Positions 1,610 to 8,729 of a stretch of 23,829 nucleotides of DNA are shown piece after piece (position 1 is the first letter of the stretch; the number at the start of each line of letters is the position of its first letter). Source of the DNA: Myxococcota bacterium (GTDB lineage: Bacteria; Myxococcota; JACRCW01); assembly GCA_040752415.1 (NCBI GenBank), contig JBFMGU010000166.1, positions 1-23,829 of the forward strand, read 5' to 3'. The notes beneath the pieces were generated by a model. It was given only the letters and a program-made list of their open reading frames with translations. It was not told the origin of the DNA and searched no databases. Position numbers and translations under genes: made by a program.

Positions 1610-2311
1610 ATGTCCACCTCCCACACCGGCACCCAGCAGGCATTGCAGACCGCGCTCGCGGTCCTGCGACGCGCCAACCTGGAAACCGTGGCCCAGGCGC
1701 AGCGCGTCTTCAGCACGCCCACGGACGCGGAGGAGGCGTTCCTGGATGCGTCCGCGCGCCTCTTTGACATCAACCACTGGGGCAACCTGGGACCGCGCCA
1801 TCCGCTGCGCGCGGAGTTCCTGCTCCATGACGAGGAGGGTTTCCCCGTCGAGCGCATGCCACGTCCCGGCGATCACATCCGCATGGGCCTGCCGCCTTCG
1901 TACTTCCTCCCGGGGCACGCGTTGGGCGGTCCGGACTGGGTGCGCGTGGAATCCGTGGAGGCGGAAGAACAACGGTCCCGCATCAGCGTCCGCCCCTCGC
2001 CGCGCCCCGCCTCCGGTGACGACATCATCACGCACTTCTTCACCGACCAGTCGCTGAACCACTTTGTCGTCGAGCGGGACGGCCTGGTGCTCACCGCCAC
2101 GGTCCGCGGTGACCACGAGTATGCGAACGTGGACCCGTACATGGCCGGTGGCGTGACCCGCGCGGTACGGAATCTCGCGGTGGCGGTGATGTCCTGGGGA
2201 TTGGGCGTGCCGCGGCACGTGGGCGGTCAGGACTCCTGGCGCCTGGAGCCGCTGCTGGGCATGCACAAGCTGATGTGGAAGCCGTTCACACGGAACCTGG
2301 TTGGAGACTGA
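1610..2311 (+). CDS. Conserved-looking hypothetical protein, 233 aa
   Basis: AGGAG RBS, 15 bp after the SDR stop. Globular composition with RLFDINHW, DWVRVE and HFFT motifs. Overlaps the convergent gene by 26 bp. Confidence 0.75.
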   Translation: MSTSHTGTQQALQTALAVLRRANLETVAQAQRVFSTPTDAEEAFLDASARLFDINHWGNLGPRHPLRAEFLLHDEEGFPVERMPRPGDHIRMGLPPSYFLPGHALGGPDWVRVESVEAEEQRSRISVRPSPRPASGDDIITHFFTDQSLNHFVVERDGLVLTATVRGDHEYANVDPYMAGGVTRAVRNLAVAVMSWGLGVPRHVGGQDSWRLEPLLGMHKLMWKPFTRNLVGD

Positions 2312-4061
2312 TGGGCAGGTTGCGGCGGGCGGCGGGCTCGCGCGTGAGCGCGGTCGACGTCGTGGCGGACAGGCCCAGCTGGGCCACGAGCACGTGATTG
2401 ATCCCGTCCCGCCCCGACGCCAGGGTCATGCGGGCGCCATCAAATCCGCTGAAGGCCACCAGGTCCGCGTACTGCTGCGGCGCGTAGTAGCTGGCGCGGT
2501 AACCCATGTGGCTTCCGCTGAGCGCATAGGGCGCCGGGGTGAAGCAGTCGGTGACCAGCGTGCCGTCTTCGACGAGGGACTCGCGCAGCCAACGGAGATG
2601 ACGCAGGCAATCCGGCTTGGGAATCCACGACGACAACCCGACGAACACGGCCAGGTCGAACCGTCCACCGGCCTGCGCCCGCAGCTCGGGACCGGTGAGG
2701 TCTCCGCGCAGGAAGCGCAGGTTGACGCCGAGCGCCCGTGCCCGTGCCTCGATGTCCGGCTGCAACACGCCACGCGGGTCCAGGTCCGCCGCCACCACCT
2801 CCACGCGTGCCATGGCCTGCGGCATCCGCGCCCGCACCTGCTCCAGCGCGCCCATCACGTCGTCGGAGAAACCGCTGGGGCCGGTGAAGACGCGCACCGT
2901 GCCACCCGTCCGGAGACGACGCTCCAGCTCCTGGGAAAGCGCGTGCGTCACCAGCGCCAGTCGGTCATACACCGCGCGGTGCAGCGGGTAGCGCAGGAAG
3001 ATGCGGTCGGCCCAGGTGCCCGGCTCGTCGGTGCGGACGTAGATCTCCCGCATCAGCTCCGCGGAATAGCCCTCCTTCAAGAGGCGACGTCCCAGCGAGG
3101 AGAATAGGAAGAACGGCTCCCGCCACGCGTCGGAAAGCGCATGCATGACGAGGTAGCCGAGCACGTAGTGCAGACTCACCAGCTTCCTGACGAGCAGCAG
3201 GCCGGTCATGCGCGGCGCGCTTCCCAGCGGAGCCAGCTCATGTCCCAGCGCCCGCGGCGCGGGCAGGACGGGCCGGAGCTCCCCGACGACACGGTGCATG
3301 GTTGCCGCGGCGGTGATGCCTTCCACGTCCACCCACACGACGGAAAGTGTGGGGACCAACCGCCGCAGCACGTCCATGGCCGCCAGGTACATCCCACGCG
3401 CCTGGGTCATGTCCGCGTGATTCTCGTGCCGGTCCAGTCCATTGCCACGCGCCGCGGCGCGCGCCAGCGCCGTCGACGGGGAGGCATCCAGGAACACCAC
3501 CACGTCGGGCAGCAGGTGATGCACGCGGAACAGGCGCAACACGCGACAGATGAAGCGCGCCAGTCCCAGTCGCGGAAGCTGCGGCAGCGGCTCGGCGTGC
3601 TCCCCGGTCATCAGGAAGCGCAGCAGGATCTTCACGTGCTCCGGGTCGGCGGCGCGGCCTCCGCTGGCGGGCCACAGGTAGTTCGCCGCGCGGCCGGCGG
3701 TGCACAGCACGGTGTTTCCGTCGGAGATCATGACGTCGGGACGGAAGCGCGCAGCCATGGCGCGGGCCGCCACATCCTGCACGATCATCTGCACCAGCTT
3801 CACCGCCGCGTAGAGCGCGGGGATGTTCACCCACTGGTGCGTGAGCCAGCGCAGCACCGCGTTCAGCCGAGCGGTCACGGGCAGGCCAGGAGGCTCGAAA
3901 CCGTCGGTGACGTGGTCCTGTTCGGGACCGGTGAGGCGGAACTGCTCCCCGGCCAGCCCCACGGTGAGCCCGGATTCCGCCGACAACAGCGACGGCAGCG
4001 TCCGCGCAACCGTGCTCTTGCCACTGCCATCAATGCCCAACAGCGAGACGTGGAGTGTCAT
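2286..4061 (-). CDS. Thymidylate-kinase-like P-loop domain fused to class I SAM-methyltransferase-like domain, 591 aa
   Basis: GGAGGAG RBS before ATG 4061. P-loop GIDGSGKST and TMK-like PDVVVFLDASPSTALAR...DRHE. C-terminal Rossmann MTase motifs VVAADLDP, FLRGDL, FDLAVFVGL and LVEDGTLV. Confidence 0.8.
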   Translation of the reverse strand: MTLHVSLLGIDGSGKSTVARTLPSLLSAESGLTVGLAGEQFRLTGPEQDHVTDGFEPPGLPVTARLNAVLRWLTHQWVNIPALYAAVKLVQMIVQDVAARAMAARFRPDVMISDGNTVLCTAGRAANYLWPASGGRAADPEHVKILLRFLMTGEHAEPLPQLPRLGLARFICRVLRLFRVHHLLPDVVVFLDASPSTALARAAARGNGLDRHENHADMTQARGMYLAAMDVLRRLVPTLSVVWVDVEGITAAATMHRVVGELRPVLPAPRALGHELAPLGSAPRMTGLLLVRKLVSLHYVLGYLVMHALSDAWREPFFLFSSLGRRLLKEGYSAELMREIYVRTDEPGTWADRIFLRYPLHRAVYDRLALVTHALSQELERRLRTGGTVRVFTGPSGFSDDVMGALEQVRARMPQAMARVEVVAADLDPRGVLQPDIEARARALGVNLRFLRGDLTGPELRAQAGGRFDLAVFVGLSSWIPKPDCLRHLRWLRESLVEDGTLVTDCFTPAPYALSGSHMGYRASYYAPQQYADLVAFSGFDGARMTLASGRDGINHVLVAQLGLSATTSTALTREPAARRNLPISLQPGSV

Positions 4062-5106
4062 GGTGGGTCTCCTCCATGAGGGTGCCGCGGTAGCGAACAC
4101 CGGGAACAAAGGGCACCACCGCCGCCAGACAGATGCGCAGCCGGCGGTGCCACGCGTGCATGTCCTCGTCGACGAACAACGCGCCGCGCGGACGGTCCAT
4201 CAGCTCGAGCTCGACGCTCTCCCGGGGGGCCAGCCGCAGGTGCCATGCGCCCTCCGCCAGCCGCTCGGGGGCCAGGAGGTGGCGCGCCAGGCTTCCCCGC
4301 TCGAGGACGGGGAGCAGGTGCACGGACAGCCCCGGCTCGTCGGTGGAGATGGCGGTGGGAATGGGCAGCTCCGGGATGGGACCGGTCATCACCACGCCGG
4401 CCACCATGTCCATCGTCGTCAGCGAATGCGGGCCGGTGATGCGAACGCGCTCCGCTCGACGGAAAGCAGCCACGCGCGCGGCACGCCATGCAAAGGCCAG
4501 CGCGTACTCGAGGTGGTTGACGCGCTCCAATCCCAGAGAGGCCGCCGCGGCCGTGTGCAGGGGCTTCAAGCCGGAGCGGAACAGGCGCAGGTCGCCCGGC
4601 ACGCGACCCAATTGCCCCAGCCCCACGAGACCCGCGGCGTGGAAAACGCGCATGGCGCCTTCCGCGGTGAACGTCTCGACGCGCACCACCTTGGCGGCGG
4701 CGCGCCGCCCCTCCCGCAGGGAGACGCACAATTCATCCACCGCCTGCACGCCGTCGCGGGGCACCGCGTAGCGACGCGCCAGCACGTTGCCGGAACCCAT
4801 GCGCAGCGCGGAAAGAGCAACGCGGCTGGGCTTGCGCTCCTGGGCCAGCACAGCGTCGATGGCGGAGCGCAACGTGCCACTGCCGCCTCCCGCAATCACC
4901 GCCACCTGCCCTCGCGTCCGCTCGAGGAAATGCGTGACCCGCGCTGTGACATCCGCGTGGTCTTCCGCGAGCGCCAGCTCGACATCGACGAGACCGCCCA
5001 GGTTCTCCGCCATCCGTCGTCGGAGCACCACCGCTTCGCCGCCGTGATCACCCAGTCCCGCGTGGTCGTGGACCACCATCAGGACGTGTTTCACTCGGGT
5101 TGCCAT
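4030..5106 (-). CDS. Diacylglycerol/lipid kinase family (YegS/DgkB-like) protein, divergent, 358 aa
   Basis: GGAGG RBS before ATG 5106. VIAGGGSGT (cf. GGDGT), RMGSGNVLAR (cf. PxGTGNDFAR) and C-terminal VDED (cf. DGE). Confidence 0.75.
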   Translation of the reverse strand: MATRVKHVLMVVHDHAGLGDHGGEAVVLRRRMAENLGGLVDVELALAEDHADVTARVTHFLERTRGQVAVIAGGGSGTLRSAIDAVLAQERKPSRVALSALRMGSGNVLARRYAVPRDGVQAVDELCVSLREGRRAAAKVVRVETFTAEGAMRVFHAAGLVGLGQLGRVPGDLRLFRSGLKPLHTAAAASLGLERVNHLEYALAFAWRAARVAAFRRAERVRITGPHSLTTMDMVAGVVMTGPIPELPIPTAISTDEPGLSVHLLPVLERGSLARHLLAPERLAEGAWHLRLAPRESVELELMDRPRGALFVDEDMHAWHRRLRICLAAVVPFVPGVRYRGTLMEETHHDTPRLAVGH

Positions 5107-5268
5107 GTTCCACCTCCTGACGTGATGCATTTCAATCCGCGCACCAACTCCGCGCCGCGACGGAAACCCCGCTCCGCCCGGGCACTTGCAACGTGAGCGA
5201 AACGCGTTGGCGCCAGGCGGCCCTGGGCCGCGGGTGCACACGCTGTACAGGAAACGCCCATGCCCTCC

Positions 5269-7578
5269 TCACGACGCCTTCACCGCGCCTCGCAGCGAGG
5301 GCGTGCTCCATTCCGCCTGCGTCACCCGTCGGGGCATCAGCGTCAGCAGTGCCGGCAACAACAGGAGGTCGCCCATCAGCGCGAAGAACACCGCGATGGC
5401 GCTCAGCTGGCCCACGTACGCCACCGAATGCACATGCGAGGCGGCAATCACCAGGAACCCCGCGACGAAGAGCAGCGTGTTGCACACCACCGCCACGCCA
5501 CTGCTCTCGGCCACGTGCGCCACCGCGTCTTCCAGGGACGCGCCCTCCCGCATGCGCCGGTTGAGTTGAAACAGGATGTGCACCGTGTCGTCGACGACGA
5601 TGCCCAGGACCGCGGCGGCGATGGTGACGGTGGCAATGTCCAGCCAGATGCCGGCCCACCCCATGACCCCGAACACCACGAGCACCGGCAACACATTGGA
5701 GGGCAGCGCGGCCAGCGTGAGGCGCCACGAGCGGAGGATGAATGCAATGATGATGAAGATGAGCAGGAACGCGGAGGCAAAGCTGTCGACCTGGTCCGCC
5801 ACCACCTGCTCCGCCATGCGCCAGTTCAGTGGGAGGTATCCGCCCACTTCCACGGTCACTCCGTCGGGAACCTGGGCGCGGGCCGTGCTCACCGCACGCT
5901 CGGCAATCCGCCGGTATTCCTGGGAACTGGAAATCGGCACGAACACGGTGAGCCGCATGCGGTTTCGCGCCCGGTCCACCATGGACGTCAGGTCCTCGGC
6001 ACCGCCGCCCACTTCCGCCATCAGCAGCAGGTGCGTGACGTCCTCTCGCGTGTGCTGCCGCCACGACGTCATCCGCGCCGCGCCATTCACCGCGCGGTCG
6101 GCTTCGGCCAGCACGTCCAATGCGGACAGCGTGCCCCGGTTTCCGAAACCATGGGCCAAAGTGGTCTGCACGTCGGCTACGGTTTGGAGGAATGCCGGGT
6201 CTTTCCATTCCGTGCCCGACGGAGCGCCGAGCACGAGCTCCAGGGGAATGAACGGCCCCACCTCGCGCTCGATGCGTGCGGTGTCGGTGCGGAAGGCGTG
6301 GGAATCCGGCAGGAAGTCCATTGCCCGCGTGTCCACCACCAACCGCGACGCACCCGCGACCGAAGCCACGACGACCAGCATGGTGACGCCCAGGGCGAGG
6401 AAACGATGGTGCAGGGCGCCCAACATCGCGGTCCGCGTCACACGCGTCAGCGACTGGTGCAGCAGTGACGGGGGCGCTGGCCGGGAAAGGCGTGGCAACG
6501 CCACGACGACGAGGACGAAGACCAGGGCAAAGGAGAACAAGACGCCCAGGGCGCCGAAGAGGCCAAAGTCGCGGGTGATGGTGGTGCCCGCGCCCAGGAG
6601 GGAGGAGAAGCCCGCGGCCTCGGTCACCGCGTTGATGCCGCACGGCACCGCCACCGCGGACAACGTCAGCAGGATGAACCGCGACGAGGAACGCAGCCTC
6701 CTCCGCTCCCGCAGGTGCGTGGTGATGTGAATGACATTGGCCACCCCGATGACCATCACCAGTGCCGGCAGCGCCATGGTGAACATGGTCACCGGGCGAC
6801 CGAGCAGCGCCATCACCCCGAACATGGCGACGTCCGCCAGCGTGACCGCCGCCATGGCCACCAGCACCCAGGCCCAGCGCCGCGTCAGGAAGAACAGGCC
6901 CAGGATGATGACCACGTAGGACAGGCCGATGAACAACGACCCCTCTCCCAGCGTGGCGCGATTGACCGCGTCATACAGCACGCCCATGCCGGCGTGACTG
7001 GCTTTCTCGTCGGGAGCGAGCGCTCGGGTGGTGGCGGCGCGGAGCTCCTCAAGGATGCGCGGTCGCTCCGCGTCCACCCCCGGTCCCGCGGACAGCCAGC
7101 TGAACACCACCAGCGTCCGACGATCCGCGCTGATCAAACGCGCAGGCAATCCGCCCTGTGTCACGGCCTGCTGGGCACGCTGCAGATCGTCGGTCTCCAC
7201 GGGGCCGTCCACCACGGAAACCAGCGGCCTTTCGGGTCGCCCGGGATTGGGCACGCGCGCGTTGGCCAGGCTGCGAACGCGATCCATGCCGTCAATCTCC
7301 TGCAGCGCGTTGGTCAGGGCGGCGAGTCGCTGCAGCCGCTCCGCGCCCAGCTCCGTCGACGGAGAATGGATGGCGGTGACCACCACCTCGTCGTTGCCAA
7401 AGGTGCTGACGAAGTCACGGTAACGGAGGAATGCGGGGTCATCATGGACAAACCAGACCTCCAGCGAATTGTCGATGGTTGCCCGCGACGCGGCCACGCC
7501 CAGGAGCGCGCACAGTGCCACCGTGACCAGCGCCACCTTGCGTCGATGTCCAACCAGGGTCCGCATGAGCGTGCGCAT
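5269..7578 (-). CDS. MMPL/RND-family exporter (COG1033-like), 769 aa
   Basis: Two repeats of TM + periplasmic domain + multi-TM bundle. IDNSLEVWF...FGNDE at the N-terminus, GIVVDDTVHIL and DLLLLPALL in the C-terminal half. GGAAGG RBS before ATG 7578 (alternative start 7566). Confidence 0.9.
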   Translation of the reverse strand: MRTLMRTLVGHRRKVALVTVALCALLGVAASRATIDNSLEVWFVHDDPAFLRYRDFVSTFGNDEVVVTAIHSPSTELGAERLQRLAALTNALQEIDGMDRVRSLANARVPNPGRPERPLVSVVDGPVETDDLQRAQQAVTQGGLPARLISADRRTLVVFSWLSAGPGVDAERPRILEELRAATTRALAPDEKASHAGMGVLYDAVNRATLGEGSLFIGLSYVVIILGLFFLTRRWAWVLVAMAAVTLADVAMFGVMALLGRPVTMFTMALPALVMVIGVANVIHITTHLRERRRLRSSSRFILLTLSAVAVPCGINAVTEAAGFSSLLGAGTTITRDFGLFGALGVLFSFALVFVLVVVALPRLSRPAPPSLLHQSLTRVTRTAMLGALHHRFLALGVTMLVVVASVAGASRLVVDTRAMDFLPDSHAFRTDTARIEREVGPFIPLELVLGAPSGTEWKDPAFLQTVADVQTTLAHGFGNRGTLSALDVLAEADRAVNGAARMTSWRQHTREDVTHLLLMAEVGGGAEDLTSMVDRARNRMRLTVFVPISSSQEYRRIAERAVSTARAQVPDGVTVEVGGYLPLNWRMAEQVVADQVDSFASAFLLIFIIIAFILRSWRLTLAALPSNVLPVLVVFGVMGWAGIWLDIATVTIAAAVLGIVVDDTVHILFQLNRRMREGASLEDAVAHVAESSGVAVVCNTLLFVAGFLVIAASHVHSVAYVGQLSAIAVFFALMGDLLLLPALLTLMPRRVTQAEWSTPSLRGAVKAS

Positions 7579-8039
7579 GAGCTGTCCCTTCCAGCGCCAG
7601 AGGCACCGGTTCGTTGTGCAGCGCGGGGCTGCCGTGGTTTCCCTTCCCCGGTGGCGCGGCATCCCTGATGACGACGTCACCGCTTCCCATCTGGAGCCGT
7701 TGGTGTGTGGTCCGTGTGAAGCTCGGGTTCAACCTCCAGGGCGCACCGCGGTAGGCGGTGTGAAGCGCGGCCAGGACGACCGTCGCTTCCCAGGAGTCGC
7801 AAACATCAGGCCAGCGCGGTGCGCCCGGACTGCGAAGGGAAATGCGCGGTCAGGAGAAACCATCTGCCAATGGAATGTGACGGAGGTGCGAACGCGAATG
7901 CGCACCTGCGAGGAGCGCGACGCACCGCGGCGTGGGAACGTGGTGTGGCGTGGAACAGGCGGGAGCTTCGGCGACGTCGGTGGAGCTTGGACGTGGCCCG
8001 TGTTGCAGCCCGCCGTTACCTCCGCAACGGAGGTCGTGC

Positions 8040-8252
8040 ATGAAGGGACTGATGGGTTTGCTTGGCGTGTTCAGCGCGGCGGACGCACTCTGGATTGCCA
8101 CCAACCGGCATGGTTGGGCGCGCTTCTGGCGGGGATTCCTGCGCTCCGTGGAGCGGAAGCCCAAGGCATCACGGGGCGTGGCGGCGGTGGAGCTGGCCGT
8201 TGGCGCGGCGCTCCTGGCCACGCTGGTGCGACAGCGCCGTCTGGGCGTGTGA
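8040..8252 (+). CDS. Small two-helix membrane protein, 70 aa
   Basis: GGAGG RBS before ATG 8040. MKGLMGLLGVFSAADALW... and GVAAVELAVGAALLATLV hydrophobic segments flank a basic loop. Confidence 0.65.
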   Translation: MKGLMGLLGVFSAADALWIATNRHGWARFWRGFLRSVERKPKASRGVAAVELAVGAALLATLVRQRRLGV

Positions 8253-8260
8253 GTCACGGC

Positions 8261-8374
8261 CCACGAGGATCCCGTGACGACGTGATCGTCGTGGCGAACC
8301 CGGTTTCGCGCCATGACGCGCTGGGCGCGCCGCGCACAGGTTGGCCTCGAAGGGAGCGCGCGGGATCCTCGTGG
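8261..8374. repeat. 14-bp perfect inverted repeat enclosing smaller hairpins
   Basis: CCACGAGGATCCCG (8261-8274) pairs with CGGGATCCTCGTGG (8361-8374). Internal hairpin ACGACG-TGAT-CGTCGT at 8277-8292. Confidence 0.7.
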
Positions 8375-8432
8375 ACCTTGTGTCGGGTGATGCATGCTGA
8401 CGACGCCGCACGCGCCGCAAGCGGGACGTCGT

Positions 8433-8717
8433 CGGTCACGGAGTGGGTGCACGGGGCGAGCGTCGCCCTGGAGTGCGGTGCGACCCAGCTGAGCGGTCCA
8501 CGACGTGAAGCACCGCCCTGGATCGGTGAACTGACCCACCAAACCGGTGAACTGACCCACCAAACCTGCGAAAGGGAACGCGGAGGCAGGTGGCCCGGGA
8601 ACCAGGCGTGCTGCCTTGGGTTGTCGATCCAGGGCGGTGCTTCACGTCGTGGACCGCTCAGCTGGGTCGCACCGCACTCCAGGGCGACGCTCGCCCCGCT
8701 CACCCAATCCGTGACCG
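8433..8717. repeat. Long inverted repeat, REP doublet (REPIN/BIME-like) or MITE-like
   Basis: 93-bp arms at 8433-8525 and 8625-8717 with 3 mismatches; perfect 74-bp core (8452-8525 / 8625-8698); 99-bp spacer. Each arm contains GGAGT-GCGGTGC...GCACCGC. Confidence 0.9.
8524..8565. repeat. Tandem direct repeat, 2 x 21 bp
   Basis: CGGTGAACTGACCCACCAAAC occurs at 8524-8544 and 8545-8565, at the left arm/spacer junction of the long inverted repeat. Confidence 0.9.
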
Positions 8718-8729
8718 GCCAGGCCCCAT

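Follow-up and report, generated by a model that had tools for sequence, protein, structure and literature searches.

A translationally coupled bacterial gene pair joins an atypical lipid-kinase-like protein to a thymidylate-kinase-like and methyltransferase-like fusion

In a 23,829-nucleotide stretch of DNA from a Myxococcota bacterium (here called the window), three co-oriented genes encode a membrane transporter of the MMPL/RND superfamily, a DAGK-like protein and a fusion of a thymidylate kinase (TMK)-like with a methyltransferase-like domain. A first-pass annotation had read them as a system for modifying and exporting a lipid, which raises the question of which of these genes belong together and on what they act. 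All three genes are present on the minus strand at the positions claimed, and the overlap of the last two, the GGAGGAG motif inside the DAGK-like gene and the gap behind the MMPL gene could be read directly (Table 1). The DAGK-like gene ends with a TGA at 4032-4030 and the fusion begins with an ATG at 4061-4059, whereas the MMPL stop codon (5271-5269) is separated from the DAGK-like ATG at 5106. With GC3 values of 0.86 (MMPL), 0.83 (DAGK-like) and 0.87 (fusion), the genes look as expected for real genes in a contig of ~69% GC, and each has full-length homologues elsewhere. A scan of the gap gave neither a terminator-like nor a sigma-70-like site, its RNA fold was not more stable than that of shuffled sequences (z = +1.46), and a search of the whole window against Rfam at gathering threshold returned no matches.

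Table 1. Features of the locus and their positions in the window
Feature	Position	Strand	Remarks
MMPL/RND-superfamily membrane transporter gene	5269-7578	minus	769 aa
MMPL / DAGK-like intergenic gap, 162 nt	5107-5268	minus	direct reading
AGGAGG ribosome-binding site of DAGK-like gene	5113-5118	minus	6 nt 5' of ATG
DAGK-like (DgkB/YegS/SphK-fold) gene	4030-5106	minus	358 aa; GGSGT replaces GGDGT
GGAGGAG ribosome-binding site of fusion, within DAGK-like gene	4069-4075	minus	7 nt 5' of ATG
DAGK-like 3' end / fusion 5' end overlap, 32 nt	4030-4061	minus	direct reading
TMK-like + methyltransferase-like fusion gene	2286-4061	minus	591 aa
TMK/dNK-fold P-loop kinase-like domain of fusion	3258-4061	minus	aa 1-268
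Class I methyltransferase-like domain with helical cap, FmtB/3OCJ-like	2370-3209	minus	fusion aa 285-564

The fusion has 107 full-length homologues with 38-51% identity, and 96 clusters of a 50%-identity representative library match it at E <= 1e-30. At all 17 other loci that include the 5' end of a fusion gene, a DAGK-like gene lies directly upstream. Sixteen of these were recognized by tblastn (L002-L006, L021, L022, L025, L027-L032, L055, L065); the seventeenth (L024) offers just 246 nt of upstream sequence, in which the DAGK-like C-terminus was identified by eye. Of 14 loci measured, 10 have a 4-nt overlap between the two genes, as does L055, compared with 32 nt in the window. Among fusion homologues of 325-1035 aa none exceeds 630 aa, so that a triple fusion of DAGK, TMK and methyltransferase was not seen in this set; related forms longer than 1036 aa were not found either, an absence that carries little weight. 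Overall, the DAGK-like gene together with the fusion constitutes a two-gene cassette, translationally coupled and complete in itself, that recurs across several phyla, and the coupling suggested at first pass marks a real functional unit. Named records place cassette loci in Chloroflexota, Acidobacteriota and Myxococcota, and the cassette is rare, with 2 carriers among 401 genomes in either of two phylum samples. Beyond the pair, each locus has its own, unrelated neighbouring genes, so that the context yields no substrate. A distribution as patchy as this would also suit a non-lipid accessory function.

The MMPL gene does not share this conservation. Its product belongs to the MMPL/RND superfamily, as judged from two repeated membrane halves and from Pfam MMPL, which matches two stretches at 71.2 bits (cut-off 20.5); scores above cut-off were also obtained with the sterol-sensing and Patched SSD models. 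No NCBIfam transporter model reached its cut-off (HAE3 TIGR00921, 150.2 bits against 351.9; TIGR00833 for actII MMPL, 72.2 against 874.7; HpnN, 56.5 against 751.85), which leaves the gene outside the named subfamilies HAE3, HpnN and actII MMPL. A search for its orthologue in relatives gave only paralogues (22-29% identical) and none in the sole same-family genome. Where the upstream neighbour of the cassette is readable, in 13 other loci, it is once an RND/MMPL gene, truncated to a fragment (L029), and once an MFS transporter (L065). Beyond L029, no RND/MMPL gene was found in cassette loci by tblastn with P0001, nor by Pfam on the called neighbours of L002-L006, L021, L022, L025, L028, L030, L031, L055 and L065. 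The exporter had been counted as an integral third member, to be checked by whether the three genes occur together in other genomes; by this comparison the three-gene system fails. The MMPL gene is a facultative, occasional and unconserved companion of the cassette. Its product may export or accommodate the cassette product in the window's genome, and because the cassette occurs elsewhere without it, it is not to be presumed part of the system.

The DAGK-like protein passes Pfam DAGK_cat (PF00781; 32.9 bits, cut-off 23.6, aa 8-127), and among the NCBIfam lipid-kinase equivalogs (YegS, DgkB, lipid kinase) the best score was 32.5 bits, far below the cut-off of 274. Its predicted model (pLDDT 87.5) has the two-domain DgkB fold, with DgkB itself as best structural match (2qvl_A; Z 25.2, rmsd 2.2, 267 of 284 residues aligned), followed by SphK1 (4l02; Z 24.8), 3t5p (Z 24.7) and 2bon (Z 21.9). 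Matches to NAD kinases gave Z 16.0-17.4, placing the model clearly nearer to lipid kinases. In a profile comparison with DgkB, the GGxGT and GS/GT-N motifs line up. SphK and NAD kinases use the Asp of GGDGT in catalysis. In the window this motif reads GGSGT, and all 10 aligned family members have GG(G/S)GT; the Asp is missing in all 14 aligned DAGK-like proteins from both architectures (see below), and all 10 type-b members have LRMGSGN in place of PxGTxND. Invariant in the family are an N-terminal NRxAGTG-type motif, GGxGT and a C-terminal (F/L)(L/V)DED, which we take to be the counterpart of the DgkB DGE. A role in ATP binding is described for the GGDG motif (10.1101/2023.05.01.538943). With its Asp missing, the DAGK-like subunit may be no kinase at all, whereas the invariance of the remaining nucleotide-site motifs suggests that it binds a ligand and may catalyse by an altered route. 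The protein had been called a degenerate DAGK, which is apt for the altered GGDGT, but the family is conserved rather than decayed.

A comparable picture emerged for the N-terminal domain of the fusion. Pfam Thymidylate_kin (PF02223) scores 30.1 bits (cut-off 27) over profile positions 116-163 of 185 only, and NCBIfam TIGR00041 reached 28.4 bits with a cut-off of 83.25. In the predicted model of the fusion (pLDDT 84.4), residues 2-268 match 4dwj (Z 17.7, rmsd 3.1, 195 residues aligned), and further matches are 5x7j (Z 17.3, 26% identity) and deoxyadenosine kinase (Z 16.9). The P-loop GIDGSGKS is retained, with G9 and D11-K15 invariant in 25 of 25 sequences, and R201, R205 and E213 of the LID are invariant in 13 of 13, canonical TMK among them. 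In TMK, the arginine of the DRY motif binds the acceptor's phosphate. This Arg is missing in all 12 aligned TMK-like domains, where the motif reads D-G-N/S/C/L (D-G-N in the window), and ~50 additional residues follow the AYQ-equivalent motif. A separate canonical tmk in the genome (149 bits) has its DRY intact. Each kinase-like module is thus without a residue normally needed by its family, and the two sequential kinases of the first-pass annotation are possible.

For the C-terminal domain, no Pfam methyltransferase model passes its cut-off (best Methyltransf_25, 19.1 bits against 27), PF12147 (Methyltransf_20) matched 0 of 11 such domains even at E <= 10, and 3OCJ was not among the matches of a profile search of solved structures. 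At the level of structure, 3ocj_A is the best match (Z 21.8, rmsd 3.3, 255 residues, 20% identity; by Foldseek, E 2.2e-9 and TM 0.63 by target), and the model adds a helical substrate cap to a Rossmann methyltransferase fold, an arrangement also present in 3OCJ. The Atlas clusters nearest to the domain carry PF12147, and in one Atlas cluster the same methyltransferase type is fused to a lysophospholipase-like hydrolase. D426-L427-D428 and P395-S396-G397...D401 are invariant in the fusion family, and P(S/C)G...D and DLD motifs are common to stand-alone relatives, including P0203, which passes PF12147; the domain thus retains the residues invariant among these relatives. By the strand order in the model, they are candidate SAM contacts, as an acidic residue closing strand 2 (for the SAM ribose) and a motif-I loop. 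The putative link to FmtB rests on fold, on language-model similarity and on one transitive step via P0203. 3OCJ (BPP1064) is described as the orthologue of Bordetella pertussis FmtB (BP2936), a membrane-associated fatty-acid methyltransferase, and was crystallised with a ligand in the cap that its authors interpreted as palmitate; by the same account FmtB gave no activity in vitro and its activity is supported only in vivo (PMC5426589).

The kinase-like partners also occur together in other arrangements. Downstream of genes that fuse a PlsC acyltransferase to a TMK-like domain, a DAGK_cat gene follows immediately in 9 of 10 Pfam-scanned loci, with a weak CTP_transf_1 (CdsA-like) gene upstream in 6 of them, and three proteins (P0224, P0246, P0257) carry a TMK-like and a DAGK_cat domain in a single chain. 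Custom profiles (hmmbuild/hmmsearch) of the DAGK-like proteins cross-score 30-90 bits between architectures, compared with at most 36 bits for the genome's three ordinary DAGK_cat genes; for the TMK-like domains the cross-scores are 66-107 bits, compared with 12 bits for the genome's real tmk. These scores indicate that the closest relative of each partner is its counterpart in the other architecture, and that the evolutionary core of the cassette is a co-evolved pair of TMK-like and DAGK-like proteins. The operon with the PlsC fusion, in which NCBIfam cut-offs were unreached, is found in other phyla, its hosts being Gemmatimonadota, Zixiibacteriota, Kiritimatiellales and Thermoanaerobaculia.

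Together, we propose with moderate confidence, from sequence and predicted structure, that the cassette phosphorylates and methylates a lipid of the membrane, which may be a glycerolipid or some other substrate of fatty-acyl or long-chain type. The DAGK-like subunit would bind the lipid at the membrane surface, and both kinase-like modules would jointly perform an ATP-dependent phosphorylation, sequentially (lipid-OH -> lipid-P -> lipid-PP) or via one shared active unit; the FmtB-like domain would then O-methylate the same lipid at a carboxyl or phosphate oxygen. Pointers to a lipid come from the DAGK-like model, which matches DgkB and SphK1 above NAD kinases, from the methyltransferase domain with its best match to a palmitate-bound structure, from the Atlas cluster with the lysophospholipase-like hydrolase, and from the PlsC and CdsA-like partners in the sister architecture. 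The lipid substrate assumed at first pass is in keeping with them.

That all three genes nevertheless form one system in the window, with the cassette producing a lipid that carries phosphate and methyl groups and the MMPL protein either exporting this lipid or drawing the soluble enzymes to the membrane, is in our view unlikely. The genes share a strand, the gap is free of terminator-like sites and stable structure, and L029 has an MMPL/SSD fragment (MMPL 34 bits) that directly precedes its cassette and is in frame with it. L029 and the window are apparently not close relatives: in a quick tree (SH-aLRT only, with several long branches, the window's clade included), from which we took this point only, L029 groups with L024 as its sister within the main clade, and a starred branch parts it from the window's small clade. 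In L065 the equivalent position, on the same strand and next to the cassette, is taken by the MFS transporter, and a transporter upstream of 3 of 14 readable cassettes (window included) exceeds, by a rough estimate, what random neighbours would give. In S. aureus, moreover, soluble DgkB is described as depending on a membrane protein as its partner (PMC11962490). However, the RND gene of L029 is truncated and joined in frame to a partial DAGK-like gene and could stem from a deletion or from chimeric assembly, its RND part is only 27% identical to that of the window, and no other cassette locus gave an RND/MMPL gene by tblastn or Pfam. The five genomes holding L002-L006 do have MMPL-family matches (2 to 23 per genome), but none within about 50 kb of the cassette; only in G404 is there one on the cassette contig, the nearest ~52 kb off.

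A quite unlikely alternative has the cassette act on nucleotides, with the TMK-like domain as an NMP or deoxynucleoside kinase, the methyltransferase modifying a nucleotide or cofactor and the DAGK-like protein being of NAD-kinase type, in CMP recycling for CDP-diacylglycerol synthesis or in defence or stress. The strong TMK/dNK fold match, the fold that the DAGK-like model has in common with NAD kinases, the sporadic distribution with unrelated neighbours at each locus, like that of mobile accessory genes, and the CdsA-like gene of the sister operon, beside which a nucleotide kinase would be logical, all fit such a role. Against it stand the replaced DRY arginine, which the genome's real TMK has, the insertion behind the AYQ-equivalent motif, the greater nearness of the DAGK-like model to lipid kinases and the fatty acid in the structure nearest to the methyltransferase domain. 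PADLOC gave only three stray partial matches over short stretches (E 2.8e-5 to 1.4e-3), for which reason a defence system was dropped as leading reading. It is likewise improbable that the DAGK-like protein is a pseudokinase serving only as lipid-binding or regulatory subunit, with the TMK-like P-loop domain as sole phosphotransferase, or that the pair as a whole has a regulatory or sensory role instead of a biosynthetic one. The missing GGDGT Asp and the LRMGSGN motif would agree with this, as would the co-divergence of the two families and their fusion in three proteins, as expected of obligate partners, but the other nucleotide-site motifs of the DAGK-like family are invariant. A more specific version of the proposed lipid phosphorylation is highly improbable: the TMK-like domain would be a lipid-phosphate kinase that adds a second phosphate to the product or ligand of its DAGK-like partner (for example, phosphatidate to diacylglycerol pyrophosphate), the FmtB-like domain would then methylate the head group, and the pair in its three architectures would constitute a new bacterial lipid pyrophosphate pathway. 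To our knowledge, phosphatidate kinase still lacks an assigned gene in every organism. The activity is described, in the account we cite without a named gene (PMC8774204).

As the first-pass annotation had noted, the combination is not recognized from described pathways: we found no curated family or paper describing it, and literature searches on PF12147/3OCJ, DgkB/YegS and kinase–acyltransferase operons did not turn up a description of the cassette. None of the three enzyme folds is new in itself; the novelty lies in an obligate partnership between an atypical lipid-kinase-like protein and an atypical kinase-like domain of TMK fold, kept in three gene architectures and several phyla without a curated family. 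Should the pair indeed phosphorylate lipids, bacterial membrane-lipid metabolism would gain a reaction not known so far. The carriers belong to soil and marine lineages that have received little study, and the cassette is a compact two-gene target that can be tested by heterologous expression.

Compared with known systems, the DAGK-like protein resembles DgkB, YegS, BmrU and SphK1 (DAGK_cat) in its two-domain fold, its above-cut-off DAGK_cat match and its aligned GGxGT and GS/GT-N motifs, and differs from them in having GG(G/S)GT for GGDGT and LRMGSGN for PxGTxND. It is always encoded next to, or fused to, a TMK-like domain, and we know of no report of such a pairing or fusion for DgkB or YegS. 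The TMK-like domain shares with thymidylate and deoxynucleoside kinases (PF02223, PF01712) the fold, the P-loop GIDGSGKS and the LID R...RG...D.HE, but has lost the DRY arginine, carries two insertions and stays below the TIGR00041 cut-off, in a genome that has its own real tmk besides. With FmtB/3OCJ the methyltransferase-like domain has in common both Rossmann core and helical cap, covered by the structural match, PF12147 in the nearest Atlas clusters and, via stand-alone relatives, the P(S/C)G...D and DLD motifs; it differs in showing no sequence-level match and in being joined to a kinase-like domain. As with RND lipid exporters of the MmpL/HpnN type, an MMPL-family gene with weak HpnN and HAE3 matches stands directly upstream of lipid-enzyme-like genes on one strand, but here the adjacency is unconserved and NCBIfam transporter cut-offs are unreached. 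In the uncharacterised operon of CdsA-like, PlsC-acyltransferase–TMK-like and DAGK-like genes, the order is reversed, with the TMK-like domain first, an acyltransferase takes the place of the methyltransferase as fusion partner, and a CdsA-like membrane protein is present; yet this operon holds the nearest relatives of both core partners and shares with the cassette the GGSGT and LRxGS motifs and tight gene coupling.

The contig has a GC content of ∼69%, and the three minus-strand genes in 2286-7578 show coding-type GC3 values of 0.83-0.87. The 32-nt overlap of the DAGK-like gene with the fusion gene, which encodes a TMK-like and a methyltransferase-like domain, and the GGAGGAG motif 7 nt before the fusion ATG had both been described in the first-pass annotation and were read directly in the sequence, as was the 162-nt gap after the MMPL gene; AGGAGG precedes the DAGK-like ATG. 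A scan of this gap for terminator-like or promoter-like sites found none, and its RNA fold was not unusual (z = +1.46). At its 3′ end, the fusion gene overlaps a convergent gene by 26 nt; this gene matched no Pfam, NCBIfam or PADLOC family, and a counterpart was absent from all other loci carrying the cassette (DAGK-like plus fusion gene). The interval separating the MMPL start from a formate-tetrahydrofolate ligase gene has a GC content of 0.66-0.72 in each codon position, with no positional bias, matches neither Pfam nor Rfam models and contains a perfect tandem repeat.

Features of the window and of the loci compared with it (L numbers)
Feature	Location	Strand	Remarks
MMPL/RND transporter gene	5269-7578	-	769 aa; Pfam MMPL 71.2 bits, two stretches; sterol-sensing models also pass
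DAGK_cat protein gene	4030-5106	-	358 aa; 32.9 bits
Fusion gene	2286-4061	-	591 aa; N-terminal Thymidylate_kin 30.1 bits, LID region only; C-terminal Methyltransf_25 below cut-off
Convergent gene	1610-2311	+	233 aa; GC3 0.87
Interval before ligase gene	7681-8729		∼1.05 kb
Tandem repeat	8524-8566		21 bp x 2
PF04185 phosphoesterase gene	L022:2393-3817; L028:13-840		1-2 genes upstream of cassette
GlpD-like gene	L021:4486-6117		overlaps fusion 3′ end
Unannotated protein gene	L002:5194-6042; L022:3937-5145		adjoins DAGK-like gene upstream
Joined reading frames	L029:1-1218; L030:588-1739		metagenome contigs
Sister operon, examples	L008:5460-8744; L012:4742-8091		
Canonical thymidylate kinase gene	L056:1501-2058		contig C44 of the window's genome (G000)

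The fusion family is conserved over its full length, with 107 homologues (38-51% identity over ∼95% of the length), none of which is characterised; in a 50%-identity representative library, the fusion profile matched 96 clusters at E <= 1e-30, many of them fragments. We collected 19 other fusion loci (5 from species genomes, 12 from metagenomes and 2 via whole-genome searches), 17 of which could be used for the upstream gene, as L023 and L026 end before the fusion start. A DAGK-like gene lay directly upstream in 17/17, by tblastn in 16 and by eye in L024, where its C-terminus was identified in the only 246 nt upstream, bearing out the proposal that the two genes belong together. The DAGK-like stop and the fusion start overlap by 4 nt in 10 of the 14 measured loci and likewise in L055, and by 32 nt in the window and in L029. 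Among the called neighbours in other cassette loci, none was conserved outside the pair; they include G6PD, FdhD, a serpin, a topoisomerase and rseP-dxr-cdsA-uppS. A phosphoesterase of the phospholipase C/acid phosphatase family occurs near the cassette in two related Chloroflexi-type loci, and a GlpD-like glycerol-3-phosphate oxidoreductase gene in one other locus; these neighbours are glycerolipid-flavoured, yet each is confined to a single lineage. Two related Chloroflexi-type loci also share an upstream protein (68% identical) with a hydrophobic C-terminal segment and no Pfam match.

The MMPL gene had been proposed as the third member of one lipid modification and export system, a claim that did not survive the comparison of gene neighbourhoods. 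tblastn with the window MMPL protein found a match among the other cassette loci in L029 only, and Pfam detected MMPL among the called cassette neighbours solely in the reading frame of that locus (P0111), where the RND part aligns to window residues 254-433 at 27% identity and continues in frame into a DAGK-like C-terminal part. The L029 and window fusions are far apart in a quick tree, so L029 is a second MMPL occurrence rather than a sign of shared recent ancestry; its RND–DAGK-like frame arose either by deletion or by chimeric assembly. L030 has a similar arrangement: in both loci a single frame leads from a truncated upstream gene (the RND/MMPL membrane half in L029, the enoyl-CoA hydratase N-terminal half in L030) into the DAGK-like C-terminal part, reflecting either cassette-inactivating deletions or assembly chimeras. 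All five genomes with L002-L006 have MMPL-family genes; only in G404 does the cassette contig carry any, the nearest ∼52 kb away. In L065, an MFS transporter is encoded immediately upstream on the same strand, and a divergent MarR gene is present. With a transporter upstream in 3 of the 14 cassettes with a readable upstream neighbour, the window included, a loose, facultative transporter link to the cassette may exist; a three-gene export system in the window's own genome is nonetheless unlikely.

Weaker tblastn matches to the first 230 fusion residues led to a different conserved operon, which encodes a membrane protein with a weak CTP_transf_1 match (CdsA-like), a PlsC-type acyltransferase–TMK-like protein (∼475-490 aa) and a DAGK_cat protein. 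The DAGK_cat gene lies 3′ of the acyltransferase–TMK-like gene in 9/10 scanned loci (exception, L036), and the CdsA-like gene was detected in 6. Using profiles built in this analysis, the DAGK-like proteins of the two architectures cross-scored at 30-90 bits and the TMK-like domains at 66-107 bits; the genome's three ordinary DAGK_cat genes reached <= 36 bits, and its real tmk, which scores 149 bits against PF02223, reached 12 bits or was not found. A representative search also yielded three single-chain TMK-like plus DAGK_cat proteins (P0224, P0246 and P0257). The cross-scores show a specific relationship, and the conserved evolutionary unit is thus TMK-like plus DAGK-like, with varying accessory modules (methyltransferase versus acyltransferase plus CdsA-like). 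The sister operon (L007-L013, L034 and L035; DAGK-like motif GGSGT), carried by MAGs of Gemmatimonadota, Zixiibacteriota, Kiritimatiellales and Thermoanaerobaculia, seems itself to be a phospholipid module that is as yet undescribed.

Both kinase-like modules have atypical active sites. The Asp of GGDGT serves in catalysis in SphK and in NAD kinases; across both architectures, the 14 aligned DAGK-like proteins all lack it and read GG(G/S)GT. A published study links the GGDG motif to ATP binding (10.1101/2023.05.01.538943). All 12 TMK-like domains carry D-G-N/S/C/L in place of DRY, which the genome's own TMK keeps; they retain the P-loop and LID arginines and have ∼50 inserted residues. The canonical thymidylate kinase of the window's genome has the P-loop GIDGAGTTT, with Thr replacing the usual Lys. 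Judged by these motif changes and retained residues, both modules look able to bind ATP, each lacking a residue its family uses for acceptor handling. That the DAGK-like subunit is a pseudokinase or regulatory would agree with its lost Asp, and we regard this as improbable. A nucleotide-directed function, to which the TMK/dNK fold of fusion residues 1-268 (4dwj, Z 17.7, rmsd 3.1, 195 residues aligned; 5x7j, Z 17.3) could point, is improbable beside the altered DRY; the changed motifs would fit two proteins working jointly, as a single unit, on an acceptor other than a nucleotide.

The fusion model (pLDDT 84.4, pTM 0.87) places a class I methyltransferase fold with a helical cap at residues 285-564, for which 3OCJ was the top structure by a clear margin (Z 21.8, rmsd 3.3, 255 residues aligned; Foldseek E 2.2e-9). 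3OCJ is BPP1064, the orthologue of B. pertussis FmtB, itself described as a membrane-associated methyltransferase acting on free fatty acids, with activity supported by in vivo work only, the in vitro assay having failed; the crystal cap holds a ligand interpreted by the authors as palmitate (PMC5426589). Residues that are invariant in its stand-alone relatives are all kept in the fusion's domain, P(S/C)G...D and DLD among them. In the ESM Atlas it falls among PF12147 clusters, one fused to a lysophospholipase-like hydrolase; by sequence, 0/11 C-domains matched PF12147 even at E <= 10, the only bridge being P0203 (1.2e-31 to our own profile), which passes PF12147. Because the DAGK-like model has the lipid-kinase fold, a fatty acid occupies the structure closest to the methyltransferase domain, a fusion of this methyltransferase type with a lysophospholipase-like hydrolase exists and the sister architecture has PlsC and CdsA-like partners, we give about even credence to the cassette being a lipid-directed kinase/methyltransferase, a claim confined to the class of activity and separate from reaction order and lipid identity. 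The boldest reading, in which the TMK-like domain would add a phosphate to a lipid phosphate, such as turning phosphatidate into diacylglycerol pyrophosphate, is very unlikely.

The distribution of the cassette is rare and patchy: counting the query genome each time, it occurs in 1/41 relatives, in 2/401 genomes of the window's phylum sample and in 2/401 of the phylum sample around G401, the genome of another carrier. MAGs assigned to Chloroflexota, Acidobacteriota (Pyrinomonadaceae) and Myxococcota (Polyangiaceae) make up the named carriers, and Dormibacteraeota and Limnocylindrales also appear in the source names of fusion homologues. None of the components in either architecture reached an NCBIfam cut-off, and no description of the cassette emerged from literature searches. 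Overall, the folds are known and the conserved combination itself is undescribed; among known kinases, the DAGK-like model (pLDDT 87.5) is nearer to DgkB (Z 25.2), SphK1 (Z 24.8) and YegS (Z 21.9) than to NAD kinases (Z 16.0-17.4).
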